In this document: positions 4,001-20,917 of the stretch, one piece after another
How positions within the stretch are numbered: position 1 is the stretch's first letter
How the letters are laid out: every line of letters begins with the position of its first letter
DNA from: an uncultured Pirellulaceae bacterium
GTDB taxonomy: Bacteria; Planctomycetota; Planctomycetia; Pirellulales; Pirellulaceae
DNA length: 64,000 bases
Reading direction: 5' to 3'
Assembly: GCA_964411445.1 (NCBI GenBank)
Contig: CAYPLE010000004.1
Location: 28,447 to 92,446 of the forward strand
Program-made: the position numbers and the translations under genes
The notes under the pieces: model-generated
The model's input: the letters and a program-made list of their open reading frames with translations, nothing else
Told to the model about the DNA's origin: nothing
The model's database searches: none

Positions 4001-5447
4001 ACTTTCGGATACGGAGGCGACGGAAGAAGTGCGATTGAATGCGGCAGCGGATCTGATAGGCTTCCGTGCCAAAGACCCTGACGCTGCGAGGGAAATTCTC
4101 GACACCATTTCCCCTCAGACACCGCCCGATCTGGCGGCTTCACTTATCAGTATCATTCGCCGAAGTGCGGCGGAAGAAGTCGGAGAGTTGTTGGTTGAAA
4201 CGTTGGTTGACTTTTCGCCTTCGATAAAGGCTAACGCCATCACTGCCGTACTCAGCAAACCAGCTTGGGCGGGAGCACTACTCAATTCTGCCGAGTCACA
4301 GCAATTTGACTTGAGCGAACTGTCCTTGGAACAAAAGCAAGCGCTGCGTGAATTGCCCAGCGAACGCCTAAGGTCTAAGGCGGAAATGCTCCTTGCCAGA
4401 GACGGAGGCTTACCCGATGCAGACCGTGAGAAGGTCCTGCAATCGTTGCTACCAATCACCAAGCGCCGCGGTGACTCCGACGCAGGCTTGCTTGTCTTCA
4501 AAAAGGCCTGCGCTAATTGCCACCAGTACGGCGATCTCGGGCAGAAGATCGGCCCGAACTTGACCGGAATGGCAGTCCATCCCAAAGACGAACTGCTGAC
4601 TCACATTATTGATCCATCGCGTAGCGTCGAAGGAAACTTTCGCATGTACAAAGTACTCACTGTCGACGGCGTGGTCGTGAACGGGATGCTTGCTGGCGAA
4701 TCGAAGACGTCGATAACCATCGTGGATGCTCAAGCAAAAGAGATCGATGTCCAACGGGAAGACATCGAACAGTTGGTAGCATCCCGAAAGAGCGTCATGC
4801 CAGAAGGCTTTGAAAAACAGCTCAGCGAACAGGAACTCACCAACCTGCTCGAATTCTTGACTGACACAGGCCCATACGTCCCTCTGCCTCTTGACGATAT
4901 TGCAACGGCCATCAGCACCAAGGGATTGTTCAGCAACGGCGATAGCGGACCAGACAGGATGATTTTTGCCGACTGGGCCCCCAAGATGGTCGGTGACGTC
5001 CCGTTCTTGCTTACCGATCCAGAGGGCAAATCGAAAAAGAACATCATCCTCTTGAACGGACCTTTCGGACCGCTACCGCCCCAAATGCCCAAGAGCGTTG
5101 CGATCAATATTGGCGGATCCGTGAAAGCAATCCACATGCTTTCCGGAGTCGGCGGTTGGAGCCATCCTTACAGTCGCGAGAAGACGATCTCGATGATTGT
5201 TCGCCTGCGGTACTCCGACGGAAAAGTCGAGGATCACGAATTGCGCAATGCGATCCACTTTGCAGACTACATTCGACGAGTTGATGTTCCTGGCAGTGAA
5301 TTTGCATTCGCTCTCGGCAACCAACAAATCCGCTATCTCAGTGTCGCTCCCAAACGCGAGACTTCAATTGATGCCGTCGAATTCGTAAAGGGCTCCGACG
5401 ACACCGCTCCGATTATCATGGCCGTGACAGTCGAGCGCAACGACTAG
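1050..5447 (+). CDS. PVC-type heme-binding CxxCH membrane-bound dehydrogenase-like protein with N-terminal ThuA-like domain
   Basis: Signal peptide; ThuA-like region (GGGFVPLHCAS...GRVFYTASGH); sorbosone-dehydrogenase-type propeller (WDERGRLW...DTDGD...DTHGG...GPDGAVWVLDWYN); HEAT-like helical region; heme motif CANCH followed by IGPNLTG and 'I.DPSRSVE'. Confidence 0.9.
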   Translation: MLHVLSLLLSRTFPYHTALIALLLACSHSSGAELNALFLGDNGAHQPQRRFAELAPKLEGKGIRLVYTDDLSNLTGETLGQYDALVVYANIDRIDDAYAKAIVNYVKQGGGFVPLHCASFCFRNQPELVALIGAQFQRHGTGVFQPIPSGENHPIMEGFGGFRSWDETYVHTLHNEENRTVLEYRVDEEGREPWTWVKPFGAGRVFYTASGHDSRTWNQPGFQNLVERGIRWAAGKDPAAAGEYLDEKLFDAPPMTAKRTDIAQLQYIDVGPKIPNYTPSRQWGTQGDPKTLMQEPLAAEESIKHFVTPKGFQVQRYADERDFDSKPIAMTWDERGRLWLCETLDYPNELGKNRDRIRICEDTDGDAVADKFTVFAEGLSIPTAIVIVRGGAIVQNGTDTIFLQDTDGDDVADETTTLITGWALGDTHGGVSNFRYGLDNWIWAMQGYNNSRPEYDGKIAQRFRQGFWRFKLSHETPPRVTDLEFVRSSNNNTWGLGISEEGLIFGSTANGNPSMFVPIPNRYYESVRGWSPRTLGSIADSARFEPVTDAVRQVDHHGRYTAGAGHALYTARAFPQQWWNSTAFVCGPTGHLVGTFVLRRDGTDYTSSSPLNLLASDDEWSAPIMAEVGPDGAVWVLDWYNYIVQHNPTPNGFKTGKGAAYESDLRDKRRGRIYRVLPDDTTRLHAYDSLADANNAQLVDALRHPSMRWRLHAQRLLIERAATDSAEQLLALIGDTSVDAIGLNVGAIHALHTLSGLGWIDDEQIQANRRLSSALSRALEHESAGVRRAAISVLPQSAAGLEILLRHDELLSDSDAQVRLQAILSLADMPESDSAAHLIVSLAYQTLDDVTVDALTAAAAAHSTPFLRAVAQSSPATVAVEQITSRVAEHTARGRPNADQLQKVLASLAGADSKLAITILDGLTAGFPNDFAIAENKLLHHSLLKAFHSSEGPMQVKLLRLAGRIGNRSLDSEAEAIVQSLIETLSDTEATEEVRLNAAADLIGFRAKDPDAAREILDTISPQTPPDLAASLISIIRRSAAEEVGELLVETLVDFSPSIKANAITAVLSKPAWAGALLNSAESQQFDLSELSLEQKQALRELPSERLRSKAEMLLARDGGLPDADREKVLQSLLPITKRRGDSDAGLLVFKKACANCHQYGDLGQKIGPNLTGMAVHPKDELLTHIIDPSRSVEGNFRMYKVLTVDGVVVNGMLAGESKTSITIVDAQAKEIDVQREDIEQLVASRKSVMPEGFEKQLSEQELTNLLEFLTDTGPYVPLPLDDIATAISTKGLFSNGDSGPDRMIFADWAPKMVGDVPFLLTDPEGKSKKNIILLNGPFGPLPPQMPKSVAINIGGSVKAIHMLSGVGGWSHPYSREKTISMIVRLRYSDGKVEDHELRNAIHFADYIRRVDVPGSEFAFALGNQQIRYLSVAPKRETSIDAVEFVKGSDDTAPIIMAVTVERND

Positions 5448-5487
5448 CAGCGGAACTACCTGAAGCCGCTTTCGGATCATGGCCGCG

Positions 5488-8400
5488 CTATGAGCGCGTT
5501 GCTAACGAAGCCCGAAGCAAATTGGCGAGTCGCGACACCTGCGTCTTGGCAAGCATGTTTGCATGAGCACCGGGAACTTCGAGCACTGTCAGTTCGTTAT
5601 CGGCAAAATACTCACTCCAACCAGCAGTAGCATCGCCGCCGCTTCCTCCAGACGCACGTATTTGTGCTCGGTAAAGCGTTGCTGGTCCGAGTGACGCCTG
5701 CGGACAGTAGTCAACGAGGGCTTGCATATTGCTCGCCGCAACTCGGCCATAGTCGGCATCCAAGTCGATGATTCGGCGGATTTTCTCGTGCAGTGAAATC
5801 AAGCCCATTCGATGCAAAACCGCTAGGCGACCAGCGCGAATGCGTTCTTGCACGTACGGTAGCCACTCACGCCATGGAAGCGTTGACAGGTACTTGCCGT
5901 GAAAGGCAAGGCTCTGCAGAGTCGAAGCAGGGAGCGGCACCCCCGGCGTGGCGTCAATCATCGACAGTGAGACGGAACAACCAGCTCGCCATAGTTGCTG
6001 GGCCATTTCATAGGCTAGAACGCCTCCGAAGGAAAACCCGGCAATATGATAGGTGCCTGTCGGCTGAGCACTCAACAGTCTTGCAACCTGTTGTTCAGCA
6101 AGCTGCTCGAAAGAGCACGGCGAATCGTCATCGGGCAGAAGCCCAATTGGCTCCAGCCCGAAAACGTTACAGTCCTTTTCCAGTGCTGCGGCAAGGTCAC
6201 GGAAATTCAAGAAGTGCCCATCAATACCTGGCAAGCAGTAAATATTGGGCTTTGGCACTCTTTCACCATTGCTCGGTGAGCTTGCGAGCCGAATAACGCC
6301 CGTCGTAGCTTCAGCACTTGATTCACTGGGACGCACAGCACGAACAAACTGCTGCAATGTAGGATTTGCGACCAGAATGGACATCGAAACTTTGATATCC
6401 AGTGAAACCCTAAGTCGAGCGAACATGATTGCTGCCGCCAAAGAGTTGCCGCCACAGTCAAAAAAATTGCTGTTTGCAACAAGTGCGTCTTGACGGAGCA
6501 CCGTTCTCCAAATTGCTGAGACTGAAGCCGTCAACGGATCACTTGTACGAGTGGCGGGTTCTTGCGGAGAGACCGCAGTTTCCACCGGAGGAGCCGTGCA
6601 CAAGTGCTGATTCAATAGCCGTTGGCGGTCAATTTTTCCATTGACAGTCTTTGGCAGCGTTTCGCAAACAACAATTTGCGCCGGAACCATGTACTCCGGC
6701 AAGGCATTCATCATCTCCTGTCGCAGATTCCTACCAAGCGTTTCTGCGGCTGTCGCACCTTGCGAAAGTGATTTTGCCTGCACGAACGCAATCAAGTGTG
6801 TGGCATGGTATTGCTTATCTGTGACAACTGCGGCTTCCCGGATTTGCTCCTGATTGAGCAACCACGCTTCGACTTCGCCTGGCTCGACACGGTTTCCACG
6901 TACCTTCACCTGGTCGTCGTTCCTGGACACGAACTCCAGTTGGTCATCCCAATTGATAAAACACACGTCTCCAGAACGGTACCACCGCTGGCTTTCGAAG
7001 CCATCCAACTTGCGATCTACAAATTTTTCATTCGCCTCACGATGTCCACCTAAATAGCCTTTGGCAATGCAGGCTTGACCAATCCATAGCTCGCCTTGAA
7101 CACCTTGAGGCACCGGCACTCCGCAATCGTTGACGACAGCCAACTCGGCGTTCTGAATTGGGCGCCCGATTGGCGGCAACGATGGCCAATTGCGTGGTGA
7201 ATCAGGAAGAGAATAGGATGTCACTACGTGCGATTCGGTCGGACCATACTGATTGATCAATCGGCATTGTGAGTTGGCATCGAAGAAACGCTTCACAGAT
7301 TCCGAAATCACCAGTCGTTCCCCCGCGGTGATGACTTCCCGCAAATGGGACTTGGCGCCGCGTTGATCTGCAATGTCACACAGCCCCTTCAAAGCGACGA
7401 AAGGCAAGAACACTCGTTCGATGCGCTCTTGAACAATCGTATCCCAGAGGGCATTCAGATCGCGGTGCGTTGCCTGATCAACCAAATGAAGGGTCCCGCC
7501 GCCGGCGAGTGTTGTCAGAATTTCTTGGAACGACACATCGAACCCAAGCGAAGCGAACTGAAGCGTTCGCGTTTGGGCCCAATTTGAATTCTCAGCAAGT
7601 TGCCAATCTACCAAGTTTTCGATGACTCCGATGGGCATTTCCACGCCCTTTGGAATGCCCGTCGAACCTGATGTGAAAAGGACATAGATTAGATCGCTGG
7701 CGAGGTGTTCATGGATCATCGGCACCGGCAACGTGCGCCCAAATGCATCTGCAACGTCGATTTCGCGCACGCCTTGGATCTGACAAGGCGTATTGACGAG
7801 CACGCTGGTCACGTTCGCACATTCAACGATTTGTCGCTTGCGTTCCGAGGGCAAGACGGGGTCAATTGGCACACAAACCCCACCAATCTGAATCGTCCCC
7901 AGCACGGCAGCCAGCATCTCTGGAGAACGCGTCAAGTGGAGGCCCACCAAATCGCCAGCCTCGACGCCTGCTGCCTCAAGCTCGCCCGAGACGCAGTCCG
8001 CAGCAGCCCACAGCTCTTTGTAGTCGTAATCCCGTCCAGCAAAACAGACTGCTGCTTGCTCGCTGTGACGAGTTGCAATAGCTTTGATCCGCCGAACCAA
8101 CGAAGGCTGGTTGGTTTGGCTCGAGACCGGCAGATCACTATGGCAAGCGTCCCAAGCAGCGGGCTGCCGTTCTAGCCCAATCTCGGTCGCCAGCACGCCA
8201 GGATCACCGATTAGCAGATCAAGTACGGTTTGAAAATGCCTTGCAAATTGTGTGATGCGCGCTTCTGCAAATTGCGATGCATCATACTCCAATTCAATCC
8301 GAATCTGATCAATTGCCTGTGAAGCGGCCACCAGCAGGTCAAACTTCGCCGTACCGGTATGTAAATGCTTTGGCGTAACCTGCGATGCACCAAAGGTTGG

Positions 8401-11400
8401 AGGCGTCTGCTCATCTTCGAGGACAAACAGAACGTTGAAGAGATCTTGCTGCTTTGCTCCTGCGGCGTCGCATGCAGACTTCATACGTTCGTATGAAAAC
8501 TCTTGGTGCGACAGAGCCTCAACGGTCGCCTGATGCACCAAATCACAGTATTCCTCAATGGTCGTGGAGGGGCTCAACTGAGTGCGTATTGGCAGCACGC
8601 CAATGAAGTAGCCGATTGTCGCCTCAATTTCGGCTCGGTCGCGTGTTGAGACCGCGGTGCCAACAACAATGTCATCCTGGTTGCTGTAACGGTGCAAGAG
8701 GATCTTGAGCACGCTCAACAGCAGCACAAAAGGCGTCGTTTGCTGCTCAGTTGCTCTCTTCCGCAACTTCTCCAGCCGAGTACCATCGATGACGAAGTCG
8801 AACACCCTGCCGACGCTCGCTAAGGGAACGTCTTGCGAAAAGTCGCTTGGAAGCGTGACTGACGCGGGCATCTTGTCGAGCTTTCTCAGCCAGTACTCCT
8901 CGCAAGCAATCTGGTGCGCTGTCCCACCTTCGGAAACTTCGCGCGACTGACCAAGTGAGTAGTCGAGATACTGCATCGGAGGAATAGCAAGCTGGCATTC
9001 ACGACCTTCAGTGTAAGCTGCATAGTACTCCGACAGCTCGCGATTGAAGATACCGATAGAGTGTCCATCAACGGCAATATGGTGAAACACCAAGACCAGC
9101 AGTGCTTCTTCGTCGTCACCGACAAACAACGCGGCCCTGAACGGATTCTCACTACTCAGTTCAAACGGTTGTCGAACAAATTTCTGTACTGCGGACTGCT
9201 TAGCAAGTGCTTCGCCTGCCCCGTTCTGCAGATGCCTTACCGTCAACACGCCTTCCACAGACGGCTGAACGTGCTGCAAGAGCTCACCGCTGCCACTGGA
9301 TGCAAATCGATATTGTGTACGCAGTACTTCATGCCGCGCGATAATGCTGTCGATCGCAAACGTTAGTGCTGCTGAATCGATCTCGCCGTGAACAGCAAAC
9401 CCAAGTGGCACGTTGTAGCGTGAACCGTGGTGGTCAATCTGGTTCACCACCCACATTTGCTGCTGTTGATAGGAAAGCGGCGCACTCGTCGGCCTCGCCT
9501 CTACGCTTGCTACCCCACCGCTGTCGTTGGCGCCTGACGCTTTTTCGCATGCATTGGAAAGCCAATCTGCGATCCAACTTAGCGGACGATTTCTATCCAA
9601 CAATTGCTGGTAGGGCAACTGTGCACCAAACGCCTGCCGAATACGAGCAATTAGCGTCAGTGCCGTCAGAGAAGTACCCCCGACGCAATAAAATGTATCA
9701 TTCAGGTCAACCGTGCTCGTGTTCAACAATTCAGCCAGCGTTTTGCTGAGCCATTGATGATATTCGGATTCGCCAAGCAGATCGTTAGCATGCAACACGC
9801 CCGCAGTTTTCCGACGAGACGGCAGTGGAAGCTGCTTGTAATCCACTTTACCATTGGGTGTCAGTGGCCAAGCATTCAGAGCGATGATCTCTGAGGGTAC
9901 CATATACGCTGGCAACCGCTTCGATAGTTGCCGGACCAATTCGCCGACATCCAAATTGCCTTCGGCCGATTCGCCTGTGTTTTCCTCGGTCCGACGCACA
10001 TAGGCAATCAGTCGATCGCCCGCGTCACCGGAATCGATGGTTAGGACCGCGTCTGAAACACCAGGTTGCTTCGCGAGTTCGCTTTCGATTTCTCCTAGAC
10101 CGATGCGATAGCCACGTATCTTGACTTGACGATCGCGACGGCCCAAGAACTCTAAAACGCCGTCTTCTGTGTAGCGACACAGATCACCTGTCTTATACAG
10201 CAGCCCGGAGTCTTCGAAAGGATTGTCGACGAATTGTTCGGCTGTGCGATCGGGTTGATTGATGTACCCCAACGCCACCCCGACTCCAGCTATACACAGC
10301 TCTCCAGCCTCGCCACGGGGCGTCTGGCACATTGATTCATCGACTACGTAACATCGCTGGTTTAGCAGAGGACGCCCATAGGGAATGCTCTTCCAAGTCG
10401 CTTCAACAGAATCGATCTCATGGTAGACACTCCAAATAGAAGCCTCGGTGCTACCTCCCAGGGACCAAATCTCTGCATCTGGCAGGAACTCGCGGATCCG
10501 ACCAGGCAGGCTAAGTGGGATCCAATCACCACTCAGCATGACCGTCCGTAAACTTGAAAGCAAATGTGCGTTTTCGCAAGCTGTAACCAGGATGTCCATC
10601 AACGCCGGAACAGTGTTCCAAACGGTCACTTGATGTGCCTGGACGAGTTGTTGCCAGGCGAGCGGATTACGCGATTGCTCACGATTCGGCAAGACAACCG
10701 TTCCGCCAGCCGCGAACATGCCAAAGATGTCGTACACCGACAGATCAAACCCGAGGGCCGATAGACATAGCGTCGCGTCGGCGGCGGTGATTGAAAAGCG
10801 ATGGTTGACGTCCTGAATGGTATTGGCTGGTCCGCGATGGCCGAGCATCACCCCCTTGGGCTGTCCGGTTGACCCAGAGGTAAACAACACGTATGCCAGG
10901 CTATCCGCATCGGGAACGGGCAACTCCACTTCGCTATTGAGAGCACCTTCAACAGCGGTGATGACCTCCGGATTCACGAGCTCAACGGTGTGAACAAATT
11001 CGCACGGTAGACTGCGGCCGAGACAATAACGTGCCTGAGCGGTTTCTGCAAAATAGGCCAGTCTGTCTGCTGGAAGCTGCGTATCCAGCGGAAGGTAGGC
11101 CGCGCCAGCTTTGAGTACGGCAACGATGGACAGAATTGATTGCGCAGTGTGATCGGCGACGACGCAAACGACTTCGCCACGACGGACACCGTGTTTGACC
11201 AAGTGCCGCGCGATGATATCGGAACGCAAATCTAGTTCCGCGTAGCTAAGCGACTCCTTGCCACAGACAACGGCAGTCGAATTTGGGGTTCGTTGTGCAG
11301 AGCGTCGAACAAAGCAAGCTAACGTTGGATCGTCTTTCCAATCAAAATCGGTCGCGTTCCATTCTGGATCGGGCAGGGTGGTGGCAGACTTACTTTCTGC

Positions 11401-11553
11401 AGCGTGACCGATCGCGAATCCGCTGGCCAATTCATCGGCAGTGTCAGCATCACATGGCCCCATAAGATTTCGACACACTGCCTCTGTACCATCGTCTTGT
11501 TCAGGCGATGGAAGTCGCAATGCATCGAGTCGTGTTTGCGGAGATTGTGACAC
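5488..11553 (-). CDS. Bimodular non-ribosomal peptide synthetase, A-T-C-A-T-TE (predicted Cys then Pro-like)
   Basis: Two A-domain cores (YVLFTSGSTGQPKG, YVLFTSGSTGIPKG; YKTGD and YRSGD; NGKVD and NGKID). Two carrier motifs (GGTSL ~9670, GGNSL ~6450), C-domain HHIAVDG (~9070), TE GFSFG (~6035) and C-terminal His (GAHANM). GTG start at 11553 is the longest option. Confidence 0.95.
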   Translation of the reverse strand: MSQSPQTRLDALRLPSPEQDDGTEAVCRNLMGPCDADTADELASGFAIGHAAESKSATTLPDPEWNATDFDWKDDPTLACFVRRSAQRTPNSTAVVCGKESLSYAELDLRSDIIARHLVKHGVRRGEVVCVVADHTAQSILSIVAVLKAGAAYLPLDTQLPADRLAYFAETAQARYCLGRSLPCEFVHTVELVNPEVITAVEGALNSEVELPVPDADSLAYVLFTSGSTGQPKGVMLGHRGPANTIQDVNHRFSITAADATLCLSALGFDLSVYDIFGMFAAGGTVVLPNREQSRNPLAWQQLVQAHQVTVWNTVPALMDILVTACENAHLLSSLRTVMLSGDWIPLSLPGRIREFLPDAEIWSLGGSTEASIWSVYHEIDSVEATWKSIPYGRPLLNQRCYVVDESMCQTPRGEAGELCIAGVGVALGYINQPDRTAEQFVDNPFEDSGLLYKTGDLCRYTEDGVLEFLGRRDRQVKIRGYRIGLGEIESELAKQPGVSDAVLTIDSGDAGDRLIAYVRRTEENTGESAEGNLDVGELVRQLSKRLPAYMVPSEIIALNAWPLTPNGKVDYKQLPLPSRRKTAGVLHANDLLGESEYHQWLSKTLAELLNTSTVDLNDTFYCVGGTSLTALTLIARIRQAFGAQLPYQQLLDRNRPLSWIADWLSNACEKASGANDSGGVASVEARPTSAPLSYQQQQMWVVNQIDHHGSRYNVPLGFAVHGEIDSAALTFAIDSIIARHEVLRTQYRFASSGSGELLQHVQPSVEGVLTVRHLQNGAGEALAKQSAVQKFVRQPFELSSENPFRAALFVGDDEEALLVLVFHHIAVDGHSIGIFNRELSEYYAAYTEGRECQLAIPPMQYLDYSLGQSREVSEGGTAHQIACEEYWLRKLDKMPASVTLPSDFSQDVPLASVGRVFDFVIDGTRLEKLRKRATEQQTTPFVLLLSVLKILLHRYSNQDDIVVGTAVSTRDRAEIEATIGYFIGVLPIRTQLSPSTTIEEYCDLVHQATVEALSHQEFSYERMKSACDAAGAKQQDLFNVLFVLEDEQTPPTFGASQVTPKHLHTGTAKFDLLVAASQAIDQIRIELEYDASQFAEARITQFARHFQTVLDLLIGDPGVLATEIGLERQPAAWDACHSDLPVSSQTNQPSLVRRIKAIATRHSEQAAVCFAGRDYDYKELWAAADCVSGELEAAGVEAGDLVGLHLTRSPEMLAAVLGTIQIGGVCVPIDPVLPSERKRQIVECANVTSVLVNTPCQIQGVREIDVADAFGRTLPVPMIHEHLASDLIYVLFTSGSTGIPKGVEMPIGVIENLVDWQLAENSNWAQTRTLQFASLGFDVSFQEILTTLAGGGTLHLVDQATHRDLNALWDTIVQERIERVFLPFVALKGLCDIADQRGAKSHLREVITAGERLVISESVKRFFDANSQCRLINQYGPTESHVVTSYSLPDSPRNWPSLPPIGRPIQNAELAVVNDCGVPVPQGVQGELWIGQACIAKGYLGGHREANEKFVDRKLDGFESQRWYRSGDVCFINWDDQLEFVSRNDDQVKVRGNRVEPGEVEAWLLNQEQIREAAVVTDKQYHATHLIAFVQAKSLSQGATAAETLGRNLRQEMMNALPEYMVPAQIVVCETLPKTVNGKIDRQRLLNQHLCTAPPVETAVSPQEPATRTSDPLTASVSAIWRTVLRQDALVANSNFFDCGGNSLAAAIMFARLRVSLDIKVSMSILVANPTLQQFVRAVRPSESSAEATTGVIRLASSPSNGERVPKPNIYCLPGIDGHFLNFRDLAAALEKDCNVFGLEPIGLLPDDDSPCSFEQLAEQQVARLLSAQPTGTYHIAGFSFGGVLAYEMAQQLWRAGCSVSLSMIDATPGVPLPASTLQSLAFHGKYLSTLPWREWLPYVQERIRAGRLAVLHRMGLISLHEKIRRIIDLDADYGRVAASNMQALVDYCPQASLGPATLYRAQIRASGGSGGDATAGWSEYFADNELTVLEVPGAHANMLAKTQVSRLANLLRASLATRS

Positions 11554-11598: not shown

Positions 11599-12306
11599 CT
11601 ATGGGGCCACGTGCCGGTACACGGTTCCCAGCACCGGAATTCCTAGTTTTGTGTATTTTGCGACCGCTTCATTTAGCTGGACCGAGGTTGTACGTTTTCC
11701 GTAGACAAGCACGATGATCCCGTCCAAACAGGCAGCGATGGCCGTGGTGCTGTGTTCTGACATGGGCGGCAAATCAATGATCAGCCAATTCGAGTCGTCT
11801 TGAATTTCAGAAAGCGCGGCCTCTAAAGCTAGGTCAGCAGAATCATCTAACTCGCGTGGTAGTTTGCCATTGCCCGCAGGAACTAGTGAGAGTCCTGCCG
11901 ATTTTGACGGACGCACCACCTTTTCAACGTCGCAGCGTCCCAAAATCGCATCGGCGAATCCGAGAGCTCGCTCGCCAGTGCTACCCCGCTTTCCTTCGGA
12001 GTCTCCTTGGAAGGCAAAGTCCGCTGCAAAACTTGCTTCCATCGAGGGGCTGGCTGTACCAGCTTCCACGAGGGTCGTGCTGCGGCGAACGATCTTGACA
12101 GCAGCCAAGGCTAAGTTGGACGCCAGCGTGCTGACTCCCGCGCCCCGATCCAAACTCGTCACGCCCAACCGGAATGCATTTCCCGTTCGTGAAGAAACAT
12201 ATTCTGCGCGTCGAGCTGCCGCTTCCAGGATGGGAACGTACTGATAAAGCAGCGGATGGATCGCTTTGGCAGGGGCAAGCTGTAGGTATTGTTCTCCAAC
12301 GATCAT
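11599..12306 (-). CDS. CpsD/CapB (Wzc C-terminal) BY-kinase-like P-loop protein, degenerate
   Basis: 'GVTSLDRGAGVSTLASNLA' at the Walker A position, 'LIIDLPP' Walker B, C-terminal 'LGIPVLGTV'. ATGA overlap with the upstream GumC-like gene. Walker A Lys and the C-terminal Tyr cluster are missing. Confidence 0.8.
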   Translation of the reverse strand: MIVGEQYLQLAPAKAIHPLLYQYVPILEAAARRAEYVSSRTGNAFRLGVTSLDRGAGVSTLASNLALAAVKIVRRSTTLVEAGTASPSMEASFAADFAFQGDSEGKRGSTGERALGFADAILGRCDVEKVVRPSKSAGLSLVPAGNGKLPRELDDSADLALEAALSEIQDDSNWLIIDLPPMSEHSTTAIAACLDGIIVLVYGKRTTSVQLNEAVAKYTKLGIPVLGTVYRHVAP

Positions 12307-13856
12307 CCGACGTCTGCCGTTTCCTCTGACTCCTCGCTGGCCAGAATTCGCTTCTTCGGTAGATGGGACACTTCGCCAAGATACGGTGTATCGAGTCGTT
12401 CCAAATGCGTCGGTGATTGTACGCGGCGGTCGCGCAGTTGGAATGCCACAGCCATGAGCATGCTGCTAAATACTGCCAGCGTGAAACCAGCAAACAAAAT
12501 CATTCCAAGCTTAGGACTACTTGGAATTTGTGACACGCTTGGCGGCTGCAAGATACTCAGGTTGGAAAGATTCTCTTCCCCTAGGGCGAGATCGATTCGA
12601 GCCTGTTCGCTGCGACGTGCGTAGTCCAAGTAGGTTGAGTTTGCGAGTTCCAATTTGCGAGTCAACTCAGCCAAGCGAATTCCGTTTTGATTGATTTCGT
12701 TGAGCTGCTCCTTCGCCTGTACGATCTGCTGCGTCAATATGTTATTGCGAGCCGCCAGCGATGATGCGATGGCAACTTGATTCATCAACGCGGACTCCAT
12801 AGATTGACGGTTCTGGTTCAGCCCGACAGTTCGCTGTGTCAGGGCGTCCTCATTTTGCATGGTTGTCTGCGCTGCTTCGATCTGCTCCTTGATTTGCTGC
12901 ACCCGTGGATGCGTGGGCTCGTAGCGGGTGAGCAGCTCTTTTTCGCGAATCTGAAGTGAAAAGAGCTGCTCACGCATCCCTTCGGCAGCACTGCTAGCCA
13001 AGCCTGTCGTTGCCTGCAACTGGACCTCATTGGGCTGAGAAGCCAACAATTCACGACGCGAATCAATCTCGCTTCGCACGCCTTCCAATTCGGAAAGTGC
13101 CGTGAGTTGAGCATTCTCTAGCTGCGAGATTCTTGCAATCTGAAGCTCCCGCTGCTTGTCCAGGTCCGCGACACCAGTCCTGTTCTTGAACTCGAGCATC
13201 TCCTTCTCAAGCCCTTCGACTTGTGCTTTTAGCTGATCTGACTGGGTGATGAAAAAGGAACTGGAGCCGAGCGACTGGTGCACGCGCACGTGTTCAGTGA
13301 TGGTTGCTGAGATGACATGTTCCAACACTTCAGCAGCCAACTCAGGGCTGATGGTCTCGTACCGCAGCCCAACAATCGCTGTGTTGCGAGGTGTATAGAT
13401 TTCGAGTCCCTTCTCGAGCGACTCAATCGCTTTGTCGCGTGGGCTGTCGACGTAGAGCGGGTTGAACGTTTTCACGTAGTCCAAATCGATTGGAAGCTTG
13501 GATTCGGTCTTCGGCTCCGATGATTCTTCTAAGATTTTACCGACGCCGACCGCATCAACGACTCTTTCCAAAACGTTGCGGCTTCGCATCAAGGATTGAA
13601 CCGAGTAGATCTCCTTTTCTCGCGATTCTTGAACTCCAATTGTCTGCCCAGTTGTTGCCGTCGGATCAAGCGCCACCGACTCCTTGCCAAGCCGAACAAA
13701 CACCTGCGCCTCTGAAGTATATTTGTGCTTCGCGACGAAGACGTACGCAATGGTTAGCCCCATAATGAGACTGGCCAAAAAGAGCATCTTCTTTTTATGA
13801 TTGCTGCAGGCGGCGAGCAGATCTAAGCCGTGATGGTGTTCAGTGATATGGCTCAT
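12303..13856 (-). CDS. GumC/Wzc-N family polysaccharide co-polymerase (chain-length determinant)
   Basis: N-terminal TM followed by 'KYTSEAQVFV', a long coiled-coil with 'YEPTHPRV', then 'NLSILQPP...SPK' and a C-terminal TM followed by 'RDRRVQSP'. Sits in a polysaccharide cluster. Confidence 0.88.
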   Translation of the reverse strand: MSHITEHHHGLDLLAACSNHKKKMLFLASLIMGLTIAYVFVAKHKYTSEAQVFVRLGKESVALDPTATTGQTIGVQESREKEIYSVQSLMRSRNVLERVVDAVGVGKILEESSEPKTESKLPIDLDYVKTFNPLYVDSPRDKAIESLEKGLEIYTPRNTAIVGLRYETISPELAAEVLEHVISATITEHVRVHQSLGSSSFFITQSDQLKAQVEGLEKEMLEFKNRTGVADLDKQRELQIARISQLENAQLTALSELEGVRSEIDSRRELLASQPNEVQLQATTGLASSAAEGMREQLFSLQIREKELLTRYEPTHPRVQQIKEQIEAAQTTMQNEDALTQRTVGLNQNRQSMESALMNQVAIASSLAARNNILTQQIVQAKEQLNEINQNGIRLAELTRKLELANSTYLDYARRSEQARIDLALGEENLSNLSILQPPSVSQIPSSPKLGMILFAGFTLAVFSSMLMAVAFQLRDRRVQSPTHLERLDTPYLGEVSHLPKKRILASEESEETADVG

Positions 13857-13920: not shown

Positions 13921-15123
13921 TCAAATGGCAACTGCCCCGGATGAGGCGTGGTTTAGTATGCTTTTGTTTGCGTCGGAAGTTTCAAAGTGCCCGTTTCCAT
14001 GCAATCGTCCGGCTTGGAATGAATCCCATGCCTTGTCAATAGCTTGCGAGAGCTCTTCCTTGAATCGTTCGGGTCGAAAGTACTCTGATCGCTGGCGAAT
14101 GTAGCCCAGATCCAAGCCTTTCGTAGGCCGCTCAAACTCCTCGACTGCCTCAACAAGCGACTCAGGTGATTGTTCGCGGAAGAAGTAGCCTGTTGCACCT
14201 TCTTGGACCGTTTCCAAACTACCACCGCGTCCGTAGGCAATGACTGGCGTCGCACAGGCTTGAGCTTCCACCGGCATGATCCCAAAGTCTTCCTCGGCTG
14301 CGAACACGAAGGCTTTCGCGTTCTGCATCAGGCTCACAAGTTCCGAGTGAGGACGATAGCCCAACAGTTCAACATTTCCGGGACACGTCGCAGACAATTG
14401 CTTATGCATCGGGCCGTCCCCAACGACAAGCAGTTTTCTGTCGGGCATTTTGCGGAACGCTTCAACAATCAAATCAACGCGTTTGTACGGAACCAATCGT
14501 GAAGCCGCGATGTAATAGTCTGATTTTTCGTAGCACGCAGGAAAAGCATCGATGTCTACCGGTGGATAAACAACGTCTGCCGTCCGTCGGTAGCATTTTT
14601 CAATCCGCCGGGCGATGAAATTGCTGTTGGCCACAAAGTGGTCGACGCGACTGGCGGATGCGTGATCCCAGTTGCGAATGTAGTGCAGCATGGATCGGAT
14701 CATCATGCTGCGGAGCCCCCAAGAGAGGTTCGATTCCCGCAAGTACTGCGCCTGGAATTCCCAAGCGTAACGAATTGGCGTGTGGACGTAGCTGACGTGC
14801 AATTGGTCTGGACCTGTAATGACACCTTTGGCGACAGCATGGTTCGATGACAGAACAACGTCGTACTCCGCAAGATCCCACTGCTCAACAGCCGTTGGCA
14901 TAAATGGAAGGTAGTGTCGTAAGAATCGCTTTGCAAAAGGTAACCGTTGCACGAAAGAAGTTGTCACTTCCTTGCCAGACAAGAAGGCCCGATCCTCATC
15001 GGAGAGAAAGTCTGCGACAGCGAACAGATCGCTCTCTGGGAACATGTTGAGCATCTGCTCAACGACTCGCTCAGAGCCAGCGTAAGTGGTCAACCACTCG
15101 TGAATCACCGCAACTCGATTCAT
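13921..15123 (-). CDS. Glycosyltransferase family 4, WbaZ-like (probable mannosyltransferase)
   Basis: N-terminus 'RVAVIHEWLTTYAGSERV', 'YVHTPIRYAW', and GT4 'EEDFGIMPVEAQACATPVIAY' motif. Confidence 0.9.
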   Translation of the reverse strand: MNRVAVIHEWLTTYAGSERVVEQMLNMFPESDLFAVADFLSDEDRAFLSGKEVTTSFVQRLPFAKRFLRHYLPFMPTAVEQWDLAEYDVVLSSNHAVAKGVITGPDQLHVSYVHTPIRYAWEFQAQYLRESNLSWGLRSMMIRSMLHYIRNWDHASASRVDHFVANSNFIARRIEKCYRRTADVVYPPVDIDAFPACYEKSDYYIAASRLVPYKRVDLIVEAFRKMPDRKLLVVGDGPMHKQLSATCPGNVELLGYRPHSELVSLMQNAKAFVFAAEEDFGIMPVEAQACATPVIAYGRGGSLETVQEGATGYFFREQSPESLVEAVEEFERPTKGLDLGYIRQRSEYFRPERFKEELSQAIDKAWDSFQAGRLHGNGHFETSDANKSILNHASSGAVAI

Positions 15124-16157
15124 GATCCGGTTCCTTCAGAAGAGTGGCTTAGGCCGAGACGCAAATCATCAAGAACCGCTTGAACTAACGACGCAGTGCG
15201 CTGCCAAGAAAACGCTGTACTGCGTTGGAGTCCGTTTTCGATCAACTGTTGTCTGCGTGCCTCATCGCCCAAGACGTGAATGACGCCCGCGGCGATAGCT
15301 TCGCAGTTTGGATCAACCAACTCCGCAGCGTCGCCAGCAATCTCCGGCAGAGCCGTTGCGTTGCTTGAAACAACTGGGGTACCGCAAGCCATGGATTCAA
15401 CCAAAGGAAGTCCAAACCCTTCGTACTCAGACGGCATCACCGTGGCCAATGCGCCGCGGTACGCGGTGGCAAGTTTTTCGTCACCCACAGACCCCAGGAA
15501 AGAAACGTGTTCGGCAACGCCAAATTCGTCGATCGCGCGAGTTGTGGATTCAGCCGCTTGACCGGATAAGATCAAATCAACATCATGATGCTTCCGAACA
15601 AGAGCCAACGCGGCAATCAAGCTGGGCACATTCTTGTGCGGTTTTTGATTTCCGACATACAACAAATATGGCTTGCGTCTGTCGAGCCTATCACCCTGCT
15701 GTGTGAAGGCTTGCCCCACACCGTTGTAGACGACTCTCACACGATCGGGAGCGATTCCTGCCCAACGGACAATTTCGTCTTTGGAGTACTCTGAAACCGT
15801 TAGAACGGCGAATGCCCTGCGAGCGGCAGCGCGAACAACCGTGGCGTAGTAGAGCCGCTTGGCCAATGAAGCTTCAGCCGAATGATGAACGTGGATGAGA
15901 TCGTGGATTGAGAAGACGTAGTTCCGCTTCGAAGCCAATGGCAACGGCAACGGTGCGTTGAAACCAGGCGAAAAGTAACTCAAATTGCTTCGCCAAAGCT
16001 TAACGCCTAGCCGAAGTGCATCCAACGGACTTGTCGGGCTGCCACCCAACGCCTGAGTTTGAACGCCCGACAATCGCGATTGTAATTCCGAAGCGAAGCG
16101 ACCAATGCCATGCTGACCAATCCAACGCTGGTCGAATAGTACGTTCTGGTTCACCAT
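15120..16157 (-). CDS. Glycosyltransferase family 4 (MtfB/WbaW-like)
   Basis: 'LFDQRWIGQHGIGRF', 'YVGNQKPHKN' and 'EGFGLPLVESMACGTPVV'. I chose ATG 16157 because it overlaps the upstream wzy stop (ATGGTGA). Its stop overlaps the next ATG (ATGA). Confidence 0.88.
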   Translation of the reverse strand: MVNQNVLFDQRWIGQHGIGRFASELQSRLSGVQTQALGGSPTSPLDALRLGVKLWRSNLSYFSPGFNAPLPLPLASKRNYVFSIHDLIHVHHSAEASLAKRLYYATVVRAAARRAFAVLTVSEYSKDEIVRWAGIAPDRVRVVYNGVGQAFTQQGDRLDRRKPYLLYVGNQKPHKNVPSLIAALALVRKHHDVDLILSGQAAESTTRAIDEFGVAEHVSFLGSVGDEKLATAYRGALATVMPSEYEGFGLPLVESMACGTPVVSSNATALPEIAGDAAELVDPNCEAIAAGVIHVLGDEARRQQLIENGLQRSTAFSWQRTASLVQAVLDDLRLGLSHSSEGTGS

Positions 16158-17425
16158 GCCCGACTCCTTGGCGTTTGTAGCAACAGTCCGCCAGTCGCGG
16201 CGACACAAACTGCAAGGATCAAGAACGTGAACGAACCGGCTGAGAAGTAGTAAGTTCGCCAGAGCTCAAAGAATCCGTACAACACAATGCATCCGATCAT
16301 GCACAGCAAATTCTCAGCTCGCCAAAAATAGCTGCCGATGGTCGACATACAGAAGCTTACCCAGGCGATCACCGGGAAGGCTAGGAAGCCGAGATCGCCG
16401 TACATTTCAACCCAAGCTGAGTTGGTGGTCAGTGTTTGGTCGACGTCAACTTGATCCAAATACCACTGCTCGCCAACTCCACCAGAGTTGTCAGACACCT
16501 TCTGCGAAGCTGGATGAAGGAAAGTTGGCGTTAGGTACTTGATCAAATTCCGAGCCGTTCCACGCTGAGGTTTTTCTGCAGCAATTCTTGCAACTCCCAC
16601 ACTAGCTTGGACCGGGGCGCCCAGATAGCGTTGAACCTCAAGATACGTGATTGCGATCGGACTGCGGACGCCAAAGTACTCCCGATAGCTCCCTGCGCTT
16701 CGTACCCAAGTGAATGCGACCAGACAAACGGCCAGAGCGGCAGCAGCACAACCAATCGCCCTAGTCGACACTCGAGAGAAAGCACCAAAGCGAACAGCAA
16801 TGCCTCCGCTAAACACAACTGCTTGTACCAGCAGAATCCTCGCAGAGATTGCGGCGGCGGCAACGAGAAGCACTAGATTGAGGACGTCCAGCCAACTCAT
16901 TTGGCGCAAGAAAACGATTCGGTAGATCGCATATCCGCCAGCGAGAGAAGCCGTGTAACGCAATGAATAGAGATGGTTGTAGTTTTCGTAGAGGGCTTCT
17001 TTCACCAAGTTGAACTGCTGTGTTTTGACCAGTTCGACGATGGATACACCACCGCGAATTGCAGCCAACCAGGCCAAGGCAACACCAGCGGCGGCAACGG
17101 CCGAAAGCACTTTGTAGAACTGTTCGCTCGACAGGCGTCCCTGCTTCATAACGCCAAGCTGGGGAAGGCTGCGAGCCAAGAATTGCCCAGCCGCCGCGCT
17201 CGCTGCGATCGTTCCGTACCAAACGACTAAGATGGTCAAACTTGCCAAACTCAGGTGCTCGCGAACGTGATAGCCGGCGGCGCCTTCCATCGACGGACTC
17301 AACCAGAGAAAGAAACCAACTATGACGAATGGGCCAAAAACCACACTGGGTTGCCAAACGACCGCCGCCAGACTTGACAACCAAGCTGGGCCGCTAGTTT
17401 CAACGTTTGGACTAATGGAGGCCAT
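16151..17425 (-). CDS. Probable Wzy-type oligosaccharide repeat-unit polymerase
   Basis: About 10 hydrophobic segments, a late periplasmic loop followed by 'TTNSAWVEMYGDLG', and position between flippase and GTs. Start is uncertain: ATG 17425 chosen, but the ORF extends to 17872 into the flippase. Confidence 0.7.
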   Translation of the reverse strand: MASISPNVETSGPAWLSSLAAVVWQPSVVFGPFVIVGFFLWLSPSMEGAAGYHVREHLSLASLTILVVWYGTIAASAAAGQFLARSLPQLGVMKQGRLSSEQFYKVLSAVAAAGVALAWLAAIRGGVSIVELVKTQQFNLVKEALYENYNHLYSLRYTASLAGGYAIYRIVFLRQMSWLDVLNLVLLVAAAAISARILLVQAVVFSGGIAVRFGAFSRVSTRAIGCAAAALAVCLVAFTWVRSAGSYREYFGVRSPIAITYLEVQRYLGAPVQASVGVARIAAEKPQRGTARNLIKYLTPTFLHPASQKVSDNSGGVGEQWYLDQVDVDQTLTTNSAWVEMYGDLGFLAFPVIAWVSFCMSTIGSYFWRAENLLCMIGCIVLYGFFELWRTYYFSAGSFTFLILAVCVAATGGLLLQTPRSRAW

Positions 17426-17553
17426 GCTGCTGAGACGTTCCGGCAATGGAATGTGGAGCGAGAAAGGGGCAACGGGCGAACAACTCGACTGCTCGTGTTG
17501 AACGAAACTCAGTCTAGTCAGAATGTTGGGCAACTCGCGAAAGCCGTCGGCGA

Positions 17554-19086
17554 CTAGGCACTTTTCCCAAGCTTCGCTTTTACCGTAGTCAGCAATTCCG
17601 GAAACTTCAGCAGCAGCCGGACATCGCAAATAGTCCATACGCGAATCATTTTCCGCGCCATCAGGCTGAACAGTATGCACTGGAGGGAAACCACTGTAGA
17701 CCAAGCAATTGCCAGCCCCACAGCTCCGAATCGTTGGGTTAAGAACATGCCGCAGCACAACAGCAAAACGGAAGTGATGCAGTTTACAGCCAAGGCCGAA
17801 CGCTGGTTCCCAGACATCATCAGAGTCAGCTCGGCCGCTCCGACGAACACGAAGATGACTTGGCCAATGCACAGAATCCGCAAAATCGTTGCAGACTGCC
17901 CGTAGAATTCTCCGAACAGCAACGCGAGGATTTGTTCAGGGAACACTGCCAGCGGCAACCACACCAACACGGCTGGAATCGCAGCCATCGTCGCCGCCGA
18001 GCGCAAGATCTTCTGTAGCTCGGGCAGACGCCCCTGGGCGCGAAGCTCTGCAATGGAAGCAACCACAGTCAGATTGACGAGCTGCATTGGCATGCCAATC
18101 AACAACATTAGCCGCCGTGCTGCTCCGTAAAGCGCCAAGTCCGCATGTTCAATGGTGGCCCCAGCGATCCACACATCGGCTTGACCGGTGACGTATGAAA
18201 GGGCTTGAGTCAGTACGAGCGGAAACGCTACGGCCAGCAAGGTTACGAGCCGCAGATTCGCTTCCGCGTGCTGCTCGGGCGAAGAATGCTGGCTCAGCCG
18301 CTGTTGGTGACTCAGCTCCGCCAGCCGACGTTGGCTAATTCGGTGAACGGAAGCTACCGCGATGGGTACAACAATCAACATACTCAGACTGCTGAAAATC
18401 ATCACACTCATCAGGGAAGGCTGAAAGAGCACGTGCAACAGAATCGCCGATAGGATGAACAACAGATTGCATATGGGCCCGCCGAATTGCCCGGTTAGCA
18501 AGATCGATAGTCTAGAATCGTGAAACGACCGCAGGAGACTACCGCTCAGTTGCAAAATTGCTGAGGCAACAACGCCGACCGCAACGATCGGACCGAGAGT
18601 TATCGCGTCAGCTATTCCGAAAAGCGACTCGCCAAAGAGCATCAAGAACGCCGCGCACACACCGCCTCCGGCTAGGATGGCAACGGTGGCAACTACGGCT
18701 CCAATGCGTAACGATCGCTGGGCTTGGCCGAATTGCCCCAGCCCAATTTGTTCAGAAATGAAACGCACGAGAGCAGCGTTTAAGCCGAACATTGCCAGGA
18801 TGGATGCAAACGTCAGAATCGTGGCCAACAGAAAAAATACGCCGACGTCCTCAGGCGGCAATATGCGTGCCAGCAGCACGTTGATGCCGATCGCGGTGGC
18901 AATTCCAAGAAGTCTTCCGCCAACGACCCAGATCGCTTCGCTGGCCAAACGCTTCCCCGTGCCGACGTCGTGCGATGCGGTAATTGGCTTTGCAGCATCA
19001 TCTTCACTGCGCGGCAATTCAGCGCGACCGGTGACGGTTGCGACTGAAGATGTCGGGCTTGATGGAAGACCAGTCAAACTGCTCAT
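17554..19086 (-). CDS. Wzx-type polysaccharide flippase (MOP superfamily)
   Basis: About 12-14 TM segments with 'LLARILPPEDVGVF', 'FGLNAALVRF', 'ALYGAARR', 'LFGEFY' and 'FGAVGLAIA'. Start taken at ATG 19086. Confidence 0.88.
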   Translation of the reverse strand: MSSLTGLPSSPTSSVATVTGRAELPRSEDDAAKPITASHDVGTGKRLASEAIWVVGGRLLGIATAIGINVLLARILPPEDVGVFFLLATILTFASILAMFGLNAALVRFISEQIGLGQFGQAQRSLRIGAVVATVAILAGGGVCAAFLMLFGESLFGIADAITLGPIVAVGVVASAILQLSGSLLRSFHDSRLSILLTGQFGGPICNLLFILSAILLHVLFQPSLMSVMIFSSLSMLIVVPIAVASVHRISQRRLAELSHQQRLSQHSSPEQHAEANLRLVTLLAVAFPLVLTQALSYVTGQADVWIAGATIEHADLALYGAARRLMLLIGMPMQLVNLTVVASIAELRAQGRLPELQKILRSAATMAAIPAVLVWLPLAVFPEQILALLFGEFYGQSATILRILCIGQVIFVFVGAAELTLMMSGNQRSALAVNCITSVLLLCCGMFLTQRFGAVGLAIAWSTVVSLQCILFSLMARKMIRVWTICDVRLLLKFPELLTTVKAKLGKSA

Positions 19087-19166
19087 GGGCGAGGAGTATT
19101 TCTTGTCCGTGAGTGGAGAAATTGTGCAGAATGCAGATCGTGTTAGCGGTCCCGGACAGCGACTGC

Positions 19167-20609
19167 TCAGTAAGCTCCCTCTCTCAGCAGTACGACACGA
19201 ATGGTGACCACCAAGATGCATATGTCGAGCCACAGGGACCAATTGCGGACATAGTAGCTATCCAGTTCAACACGTTGATCGTAGGTCGTATTGTTGCGTC
19301 CAGACACTTGCCACAGTCCGGTAACGCCAGGGGTGACCCTTAGATATAAATCCAAGGCATTTCCATACTTATCAGCCTCGGCTTGCACGATTGGCCGAGG
19401 TCCCACAAGACTCATTTCGCCCACGATTACGTTCCATATCTGCGGTAGCTCGTCCAGGCTCGTCTTTCGCAGCAAGCTGCCAATCCAAGTGACTCGGGGA
19501 TCATTCTTTAGCTTGTGATCTGCTTCCCACTCGCGACGCATCTCTTCGTTTTCATTCAAATACTGCTTGAGCACCTGATCTGCGTTCGGAACCATCGTTC
19601 GGAACTTCCACGCTCGGAAGACTCTGCCGTGTTTGCCGATCCGTTCTTGACCGTAGAAAATCGGCCCCCTGGACGTGAACCGAACCAGAGCGCACAGGCA
19701 CAGAAAGAGCGGTGACAATAAGAGCATCACCATCACGGCGACTGCGACGTCCGTGGCTCGCTTCATCGCAAGCAACCACCCCGAAGCAACGATCCCCTTG
19801 TACTGAATTCCAGATATACCAACAGTGTCAAACACGCTCGCGTGCTGCGTTGGCAGGGTTAGCGCGTCCTGGACGACGAGCGTATTGGGTACTCGGCGGG
19901 AAACATAGGATGCTAGCTCGCGAACTTCTCCGCGATGCTCTTCGGCCGCGAAGACAAACCAACTGACTTTGTTCGAACGAATCAACGACTGAATACTGTC
20001 ACGCTTCGCTTCTTCGAAAATGCAGATCGGGTTCAACCCAAGGCTAGGCTTAGACTTCAGCCGTCGGAAAACGTTCAGTGCCAGTTCGCCATCGCCGAAG
20101 ACAATGGTCGGCGCTGGCCACCAATTCGTCTTACTCAGAACTCCGCGAAGTGCTGCCCTGGCTACGGGAAGGCAAAACGTAAGAGCGATCCACAGACTAG
20201 CAAGCCCGAGAAACACCAGGGGACTTGAGTCGCCCATGAATTTGGAAACGCCAAAAGCGAGCACCAAAATCGAGATCACAATCGTGCTCAGGCGGACTTC
20301 TTCCGTAGAATTCCAGACTGCACCGGAGTGGAGGCCAACGATACTATTGCTGAGCAGCAGCACCAGGGCTACAACCGGAATCTCTAAACCGGTCAACACG
20401 GGATGAATTGCGTTGGCAATAGCCGTGATGGCAAAGAAACACGCCAAGTCGAGTGCGCCGAAGCACAGGCGATTGAGGATTCGACGCGTCGCATCGCTAA
20501 CCGTAGAATGCTTGAGCGCCGTTCGCGATGCGGGCTCACGAGCTGAGACTTGCTCGCCAACAGACGGCGAAACCGCGTATTCTTGCGGCATCAGATCTTG
20601 GGAATTCAT
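19167..20609 (-). CDS. wbaP: Undecaprenyl-phosphate hexose-1-phosphate transferase, WbaP-like (initiating enzyme)
   Basis: N-terminal TMs and a C-terminal bacterial sugar transferase domain: 'KRATD', '[11 protein letters not shown]', 'KFRTM', 'KNDPRVT', '[11 protein letters not shown]', '[12 protein letters not shown]'. Start at 20609 or 20591; sugar specificity is inferred. Confidence 0.85.
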
Positions 20610-20917
20610 TAAAAAGTGGTCCAGCTTGGGGCTATCTGGAAAGTGCGGACTACGAACACGGACTACCCAAAATCTGTGGACGAATGACGTATTGCTGCCG
20701 CTTCGCTCCTCGCTGAAGATTCTCATGGGGGCTGAACAACGGCTACGTAGAGTCAAGCTAATTAGCAAGATTTCAACATCAATAGTCAGCTTCGGTGTTG
20801 CCACAATTTGCCGAGGGTTTACCGACCAACTTCCACTTGAGAGTGCAACTTTGCGGCTTCTACGGCCTTTGCTGTTCCTTCAGCGCGACCCAAGAGGTAT
20901 TGCTCGCCGCCCATTTC

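Follow-up and report, generated by a model that had tools for sequence, protein, structure and literature searches.

The draft genome of an uncultured Pirellulaceae bacterium (6.2 Mb, 93% complete) encodes a nonribosomal peptide synthetase (NRPS) of 2021 residues, whose gene comes last in a Wzx/Wzy-type glycan operon. We analyzed the surrounding 64,000 nucleotides of contig C4 (CAYPLE010000004.1), hereafter called the window, numbered from its first letter. The enzyme is of a known type, and the conserved tie between a dipeptide assembly line and a glycan operon is its new aspect. Read from its domains, the NRPS is a complete, stand-alone dimodular line, and all of the sequence evidence for its two adenylation (A) domains points to cysteine and proline. 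The most likely reading, at about even odds, is that it makes L-Cys-L-Pro alongside the glycan and frees it as a diketopiperazine (DKP) or as a linear dipeptide. In that statement we infer the substrates, the stereochemistry, the mode of release and the functional link to the glycan.

The gene is a single open frame of 2021 codons on the minus strand. Its parts, with carrier (T), condensation (C) and thioesterase (TE) domains abbreviated, are the following.

5488..11553, minus strand: NRPS gene, 2021 aa, domain order A1-T1-C-A2-T2-TE, defined by its open reading frame (ORF), Pfam domains, motifs and orthologs
11365..11553, minus strand: N-terminal leader, residues 1-63, unconserved, without a Pfam match and not a domain remnant
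9799..11364, minus strand: A1 adenylation domain, residues 64-585, code DLYNMSLIWK, Cys-type as judged by code and pocket comparison
9574..9786, minus strand: T1 carrier with serine 628 in GGTSL; Pfam PP-binding in two stretches, motif in all orthologs
8185..9498, minus strand: C domain, residues 686-1123, HHIAVDG, ordinary condensation type as judged by Pfam and a tree
6589..8106, minus strand: A2 adenylation domain, residues 1150-1655, code DVQLIAQVVK, Pro-type with His322 replaced by Gln, from alignment to GrsB1
6334..6522, minus strand: T2 carrier with serine 1704 in GGNSL; Pfam 1678-1740
5491..6261, minus strand: type I TE with the serine of GFSFGG and the histidine of GAHANM; Pfam Thioesterase

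Pfam recognized AMP-binding, AMP-binding_C and PP-binding domains twice each, with a single Condensation (residues 691-1121) and a single Thioesterase domain (residue 1770 onward), and TIGR01733 scored 729 bits against a cut-off of 317. An earlier note, made from the letters of this DNA, had quoted motifs for A1, A2 and the C domain, and all of them were located in the translation where expected: FDLSVY (residue 269), WNTVP (312), MLSGDW (339) and LGGSTEASIW (365) in A1, FDVSFQ (1338), VFLPF (1381), ITAGE (1408) and NQYGPTESHVV (1434) in A2, and HHIAVDG (824) in the single C domain. The last of these is a normal HHxxxDG motif, as had been claimed, and is present in 13 of 13 orthologs. The A10 lysines of both A domains (PNGKVD, VNGKID) and the carrier serines of both T domains (GGTSL from 625, GGNSL from 1701) were also intact. 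In the TE, GFSFGG at 1839 was invariant in the 13 orthologs, and all 13 retained the GAH of GAHANM at 1995.

Nothing resembling a starter C or heterocyclization (Cy) domain precedes A1, again in agreement with the note: the sole Condensation match is the one given above, and upstream of A1 there are just 63 unconserved residues. The suspicion that these residues are a truncated domain was not borne out. Their mean identity to the orthologs is 11%, they have no Pfam match, the first ATG of the ORF is residue 31, and the tblastn alignments of the NRPS all start at residue 64-65, where A domains usually begin (WNxT). Since the only other C domain of the genome sits in a separate pair of a polyketide synthase (PKS) and a C-A-T-TE NRPS on another contig, the line is complete in its present form.

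The first A domain is predicted to activate cysteine. The code DLYNMSLIWK extracted by hand survived alignment, in which A1 has the same residues in the same columns as the Cys-activating domain of BmdB. The aligned code columns read DLYNMSLIW here, DLYNLSLIW in BmdB, DLFNLSLIW in PchE and DAYNVSSCW in FmoA3. A query restricted to the A1 pocket (residues 255-391) matched, among solved structures, BmdB (3.8e-35), FmoA3 (1.1e-34), PchE (1.2e-34) and LgrA (~1e-12). DLYNMSLIWK itself is given among the Cys codes (PMC12283262). Across the orthologs the code is nearly invariant, with Y or F at position 239 and M or L at position 299. The 18 nearest non-orthologous A1 cores all carried Cys-type or closely related DL(Y/W)(N/D)-type codes, and the nearest relatives were a mix of domains that follow Cy domains and domains that follow ordinary C domains. 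LgrA (module 2, Gly) ranked top for both A domains in a whole-domain search of the PDB and was considered as a clue to specificity; it was set aside because the whole-domain score sums two LgrA A-domain stretches, and the pocket-only queries led to BmdB and PchE for A1 and to GrsB1 for A2.

For A2, the same type of query (residues 1324-1460) found GrsB module 1 as the best match (8p5o, 2.7e-21), with TycB at 1.1e-15; the first modules of both GrsB and TycB are Pro-activating. The earlier note had assigned A2 to the Pro class with the code DVQFIAQVVK. The predicted class is unchanged, and the code becomes DVQLIAQVVK by alignment, where F278 of GrsB1 (in SFP) pairs with the L of VFLPF. A hidden Markov model alignment of 262 A-domain cores likewise places L at position 278, and the earlier F arose because positions had been counted without gaps. 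The corrected code differs from that of GrsB1 at two of nine readable positions. It agrees at nine of ten positions with the Pro consensus (DVQ[LF]IAHVVK); DVQLIAHVV is reportedly the consensus Pro code of Stachelhaus et al. 1999. The sole mismatch is His322Gln. One ortholog (P0043) reads DVQLIAHVV in the nine code positions that could be read, Lys517 lying outside the extraction. The glutamine was correctly noticed but is no special feature of this enzyme: position 322 is polymorphic in the family, with eight His and five Gln in the 13 orthologs, and both residues are common among the nearest DVQ-type A domains. Variation among the orthologs was seen at positions 278, 299, 322 and 331. Val236 and Gln239, described as the hallmark of Pro codes (PMC12283262), are both present in A2.

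We placed the C domain in a tree of 328 C-superfamily domains that included 11 Cy and two epimerization (E) domains; with two E domains, LCL and DCL types were inseparable. The C domains of the 13 orthologs were monophyletic (support of 1.0) and lay beside a clade of 277 tips without Cy or E members. All 11 Cy domains and both E domains fell outside that clade, so the C domain does not cluster with Cy domains and classifies as an ordinary, non-Cy domain. The thiol of the A1 cysteine should remain free, since the sole domain of C type has HHxxxDG and lies outside the Cy groups.

Whether this arrangement deserves to be called unusual, as the note had proposed, was examined by reading the codes and the preceding domain type from the best 120 database homologs. 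The label does not hold: among 17 non-orthologous A domains with Cys codes, 10 followed a Cy domain (DxxxxDxxS) and 7 followed an ordinary HHxxxDG C domain. The N-terminal starter position of a Cys-type A domain was peculiar to this NRPS family within the 120-homolog sample. On the whole, the enzyme logic is fairly ordinary. DepA of the FK228 pathway was considered as a precedent for a Cys starter and rejected; its architecture in a preprint is AL-CP-C-A-CP, with a Cy-related C domain.

Upstream of the NRPS gene, and on the same strand, lie the genes of the glycan operon. They are listed from the head of the operon toward the NRPS.

19167..20804, minus strand: WbaP-type polyprenyl-phosphate hexose-1-phosphate transferase, initiating; Pfam Bac_transf, NCBIfam WbaP 431.5 bits (cut-off 403)
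17554..19242, minus strand: Wzx-type flippase; Pfam Polysacc_synt/MatE/MurJ
16151..17398, minus strand: Wzy-like polytopic membrane protein, 415 aa from Met159 of a long ORF, with ~8 hydrophobic segments
15120..16208, minus strand: GT4 glycosyltransferase a; Pfam, orthologs ~57% identical
13921..15123, minus strand: GT4 glycosyltransferase b; Pfam, orthologs 68-72% identical
12303..13856, minus strand: Wzz/PCP-type chain-length determinant with two transmembrane (TM) helices; Pfam Wzz, NCBIfam below cut-off, hydropathy, orthologs 53-58% identical
11599..12306, minus strand: P-loop ORF (BY-kinase/BcsQ-like), 235 aa, with a degenerate Walker A motif GAGVST; weak NCBIfam/Pfam matches, optional member

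The genes are tightly spaced around the NRPS. In the window, 4 nt are shared by the Wzz gene and the P-loop ORF, and 45 nt lie between the P-loop ORF and the NRPS; at two other loci (L003 and L019), one base is common to Wzz and NRPS. A scan of the operon for promoters and terminators returned no more sites than were found in shuffled sequence.

The Wzy-like protein is rare. Its place in the operon is the one expected of a Wzy polymerase. It has no match in Pfam or NCBIfam, and its family comprises only 22 proteins among 5.8 billion, some of which bear the UniRef label "Oligosaccharide repeat unit polymerase." Every close relative with readable surroundings occurs together with the NRPS. An AlphaFold model built with 21 sequences was too poor to use (mean pLDDT of 46.9).

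The association between the NRPS and the glycan genes extends well beyond the window. We found 13 full-length orthologs of the NRPS, 1956-2035 aa long and 40-42% identical to the window copy, in strain SH139, Rosistilla oblonga, R. carotiformis, Aporhodopirellula aestuarii, Rhodopirellula sallentina and several metagenomes. All 13 have the same architecture, with the domain order and the catalytic motifs preserved. The gene order Wzx, Wzy-like, GT4, GT4, Wzz and then NRPS was seen in 14 of the 14 distinct loci examined, from Pirellulaceae genera and metagenomes, and a WbaP-type transferase heads the block in most of them. This adjacency is maintained over at least five genera, and the genes outside the block vary from genus to genus.

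The link is not an artifact of retrieval. Loci retrieved by Wzz alone contained the NRPS in seven of seven cases, and those retrieved by close Wzy-like orthologs in two of two. Among 150 other Pirellulaceae genomes (126 genera), a Wzz match of at least 55% identity occurred solely in two (G010 and G133), and those two alone have an ortholog of the NRPS, adjacent to it. More distant homologs were tried as NRPS-less versions of the operon and rejected: Wzz homologs of 36-38% identity in other Pirellulaceae (L014-L016) and a Wzy homolog of 37% (L020) lie in unrelated exopolysaccharide (EPS) loci without an NRPS.

Over the 14 loci, pairwise identities of the NRPS correlated with those of each operon gene at r = 0.90-0.95, a co-divergence indicating that the block is inherited as a unit. 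For every gene of the block, the window copy represents the most divergent lineage. Within the NRPS, identity to the orthologs was 26% for T1, 36% for the C domain and 53% for A1.

Just upstream of the operon at one metagenomic locus (L021, positions 3681-6379 of that locus) there are genes for a phage-type integrase and a sulfotransferase. This neighborhood and the patchy distribution of the block, which is found in two of the 150 genomes and is missing as a whole from a genome of the same genus (G043), hint that it moves horizontally.

Taken together with the domain assignments, the genetic context suggests the following route. A1 would load L-Cys on T1 and A2 would load L-Pro on T2, the carriers being primed by an Sfp-type phosphopantetheinyl transferase (PPTase) encoded on another contig, and the non-cyclizing C domain would join the residues as L-Cys-L-Pro-S-T2. 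With no starter C or Cy domain, the amine and the thiol would stay free, and with no E domain the product would be L,L. The TE serine would then accept the dipeptide and release it, most likely as cyclo(L-Cys-L-Pro), with the linear dipeptide as the alternative. Xaa-Pro units are prone to DKP formation (PMC4519757), and release as a DKP is favored by the cis amide of Xaa-Pro and by the free amine. Because the NRPS is the last cistron of the Wzx/Wzy-type operon and appears to be inherited with it, the dipeptide would be made along with the glycan, as a small molecule with a thiol that partners the surface or matrix polymer, rather than as the product of an independent "antibiotic" cluster. The dipeptide product thus probably belongs to the biology of the operon's sugar polymer.

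Several observations weigh against this proposal. Specificity codes predict substrates without proving them, and A2 has His322Gln. The mode of release by the TE, whether cyclization, hydrolysis, transfer or oligomerization, is unreadable from sequence: its best solved relative, the TE of AB3403 (4zxh), matches at 5e-11, and the remaining ones, which include the TE domains of Pks13, EntF and Vlm2, are weaker. No exporter for a free peptide is encoded in the operon. The NRPS is also the fastest-evolving gene of the block, with a mean pairwise identity of 57% versus 66-77% for the glycan genes. Finally, the near-exclusive occurrence of the Wzy-like family at NRPS loci hints at an unusual repeat unit, which would favor attachment of the dipeptide to the glycan itself.

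Such covalent decoration is the strongest competing explanation, and we consider it a real possibility, though the less probable of the two. The TE would transfer Cys-Pro from T2 to the undecaprenyl-diphosphate-linked repeat unit, with a hydroxyl or amine as acceptor, at the cytoplasmic face, Wzx would flip the decorated unit, and the Wzy-like protein would polymerize a peptide-bearing, thiol-rich glycan. The adjacency and co-divergence of the NRPS with glycan genes at every locus agree with this. So does the distribution of the Wzy-like proteins, since polysaccharide polymerases are specific for their repeat unit: in the family of 22, the close members with readable surroundings are NRPS-associated, and the 37% homolog belongs to an NRPS-free EPS locus. 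With neither a peptide exporter nor a separate transferase at hand, the fused TE would be the sole candidate for the hand-over. The TE of Pks13, one of the weak solved relatives of this TE, transfers its acyl chain to trehalose. However, the TE sequence bears no mark of a transferase, and the dedicated membrane transferases of the Dlt and AlmEFG systems have no counterpart here, since no DltB/DltD- or AlmG-type gene was found in the operon at the examined loci. The operon also lacks genes that would make an acceptor (aminotransferase, deacetylase), and its primer is of the WbaP (hexose-1-phosphate) type. An H-Cys-Pro ester with a free amine is, moreover, expected to be unstable and to cleave itself to the DKP, given the tendency of Xaa-Pro toward DKP formation (PMC4519757). 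The more specific statement that, in some Pirellulaceae, the polysaccharide repeat unit bears Cys-Pro, handed over by the TE to the lipid-linked oligosaccharide before Wzx and recognized in decorated form by the operon-specific Wzy-like protein, is one that we offer only tentatively.

It is unlikely that the line uses other building blocks, with A2 loading a proline analog (methylproline, pipecolate or azetidine-2-carboxylate) or A1 a serine-type residue. Gln322 in place of the consensus His and the variation of the orthologs at four code positions leave room for this in A2, but clear orthologs in the same operon have either His or Gln at 322. As for A1, FmoA3 (PDB 6lta), an A domain that activates alpha-methylserine, scores level with PchE on the A1 core; its code is nevertheless four positions off that of A1, and the code of BmdB differs only by M/L. 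The azetidine codes DVQCLSEVTK and DMQLVSQQVK (PMC12283262) are far from the A2 code. No gene for the biosynthesis of an unusual amino acid was found in the operon or among the window ORFs scanned.

Iterative use of the line, in which the TE would gather two or three Cys-Pro units into a cyclic tetra- or hexapeptide, is less probable again, and we rate it as quite improbable. The thioesterases of enterobactin, gramicidin S and valinomycin synthesis oligomerize their own units, and a short line ending in a TE, with the TE domains of EntF and Vlm2 among its weak relatives, would be compatible with such a scheme. The matches to oligomerizing TEs are, however, no better than those to ordinary TEs, and a dipeptidyl-O-TE that ends in Pro and has a free amine should close to the DKP before a second unit arrives. 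The reading that a larger line has left this gene behind as a fragment or in decay, in a glycan neighborhood without meaning, can draw on its fast evolution, the low identity of T1 and the block-less genome of the same genus, but is largely refuted, and very improbable in our view, given an open 2021-aa frame, catalytic motifs intact in 13 orthologs of the same length, an N terminus without a domain remnant, a separate system for the genome's other C domain and an adjacency kept across at least five genera despite differing outer neighbors.

None of the window ORFs scanned (at least 150 aa) codes for a PPTase, an MbtH protein, a methyltransferase or a tailoring oxidase, in line with the note. 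Both PPTases of the genome are off-contig, an Sfp-type protein of 275 aa on contig C51 and an AcpS-type protein on contig C72, and MbtH is absent from the 93%-complete genome. The second thiotemplate system of the genome (contig C13; locus L013, 4508-15625, minus strand) consists of a 2297-aa PKS (KS-AT-DH-ER-KR-ACP) with a 1406-aa C-A-T-TE NRPS directly after it. This pair resembles a line for a fatty-acyl or polyketide chain joined to an amino acid and is unrelated to the window NRPS.

Some features of the operon and its surroundings deserve mention in their own right. The longest Wzy-like and Wzx ORFs (16151-19242) overlap by ~320 bp through upstream in-frame starts; the orthologs place the start of the Wzy-like protein at Met159 (17398) and that of Wzx at about residue 45-95 of its ORF. 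The P-loop ORF is missing from operon loci other than the window and L021, where the ortholog (15107-15769) is 41% identical and has the same GAGVST at the same position; this argues that the lysine-less motif is conserved and not the result of recent decay. In NCBIfam, both GT4 enzymes (13921-16208) matched BshA and MshA, weakly and far below threshold. BshA and MshA act as GlcNAc transferases in the synthesis of bacillithiol and mycothiol, and the two thiols are conjugates of cysteine and an aminosugar. The likeness is probably generic GT4 similarity.

On the other side of the NRPS, and convergent with it, lies an ORF of 1465 aa (1050-5447, plus strand) that fuses ThuA, DUF7133, HEAT repeats and a c-type cytochrome. 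The two stop codons are 40 bp apart, and no terminator-like hairpin was found in this gap. About 10 kb from the glycan operon, a 1253-aa protein (31392-35153, plus strand) combines five cadherin repeats, a He_PIG Ig domain, a dockerin and the "Planctomycete extracellular" N-terminal motif, and is likely a surface adhesin.

Comparison with characterized systems helps to place the line. The pockets closest to A1 among solved structures, with matching specificity residues, are those of BmdB (bacillamide) and PchE (pyochelin/dihydroaeruginoate). Their A domains follow a Cy domain, and the cysteine becomes a thiazoline, whereas A1 is an N-terminal starter without Cy. The nearest pockets to A2 are those of GrsB1 and TycB1. 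DKPs classically arise from an Xaa-Pro thioester whose amine is free, and the D-Phe-L-Pro DKP is formed in this way by the pairs GrsA/GrsB1 and TycA/TycB1. The dipeptide is an intermediate in those pathways and the DKP a shunt product, whereas here the dipeptide is the final chain, since the line stops at Pro and has a TE of its own; His322 is Gln.

Fungal DKP synthetases end in a C/T pair, not in a TE, and sit with tailoring genes; the window NRPS differs in being bacterial and TE-ended, and in lying in a glycan operon without tailoring genes. The resemblance is to synthetases of the brevianamide F type, in which two modules, the second for Pro, make the cyclic dipeptide cyclo(L-Trp-L-Pro) (PMC4519757). 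Lugdunin, from Staphylococcus lugdunensis, starts with an N-terminal cysteine whose amine and thiol are free, is made without a Cy domain and puts the aminothiol to chemical use (PMC8210680). Its synthetase is, however, a multi-protein line for a heptapeptide, ends in a reductase and is not linked to a glycan.

Among surface modifications, DltABCD attaches D-Ala to teichoic acids, and AlmEFG of Vibrio attaches Gly to lipid A. Both systems work with a separate A protein and a small carrier, rely on dedicated membrane transferases and attach one residue only. They share with covalent decoration by Cys-Pro the principle of adenylation and carrier chemistry serving a surface glycopolymer or glycolipid; the NRPS differs in being a fused dimodular protein with C and TE domains and no gene for a membrane transferase. 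The operon as such resembles Wzx/Wzy-dependent O-antigen and EPS loci in its WbaP-type transferase, Wzx, two GT4 enzymes, two-TM PCP/Wzz protein and polytopic Wzy-like protein. It departs from the described loci in that its polymerase candidate belongs to no curated family, its terminal cistron is an NRPS and no Wza/OPX export gene (Poly_export) was matched among the scanned window ORFs, although one may lie elsewhere in the genome. In the literature, we found no description of a Wzx/Wzy operon with an NRPS among its fixed genes, and we did not find the exact A2 codes. Reviews and species descriptions of planctomycetes count NRPS clusters only, and no product of this NRPS family was found there.

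Considered alone, the NRPS would be one more orphan dimodular enzyme and would teach little. Its value lies in the pairing: a complete dipeptide line is fixed as the terminal cistron of a Wzx/Wzy operon and co-inherited over several planctomycete genera, accompanied by a rare polymerase-like protein that is found almost nowhere else. It is this conserved linkage that makes the system worth an experiment. Planctomycete natural products and planctomycete surface polymers are both little known, and the seven-gene block offers a test case for thiotemplate chemistry that feeds polysaccharide biology, be it through covalent decoration or through a co-secreted thiol compound. If the repeat unit does bear Cys-Pro, the free 1,2-aminothiol would provide the polymer with a redox-active, metal-binding or cross-linking handle, for example in cell-cell or cell-surface adhesion.

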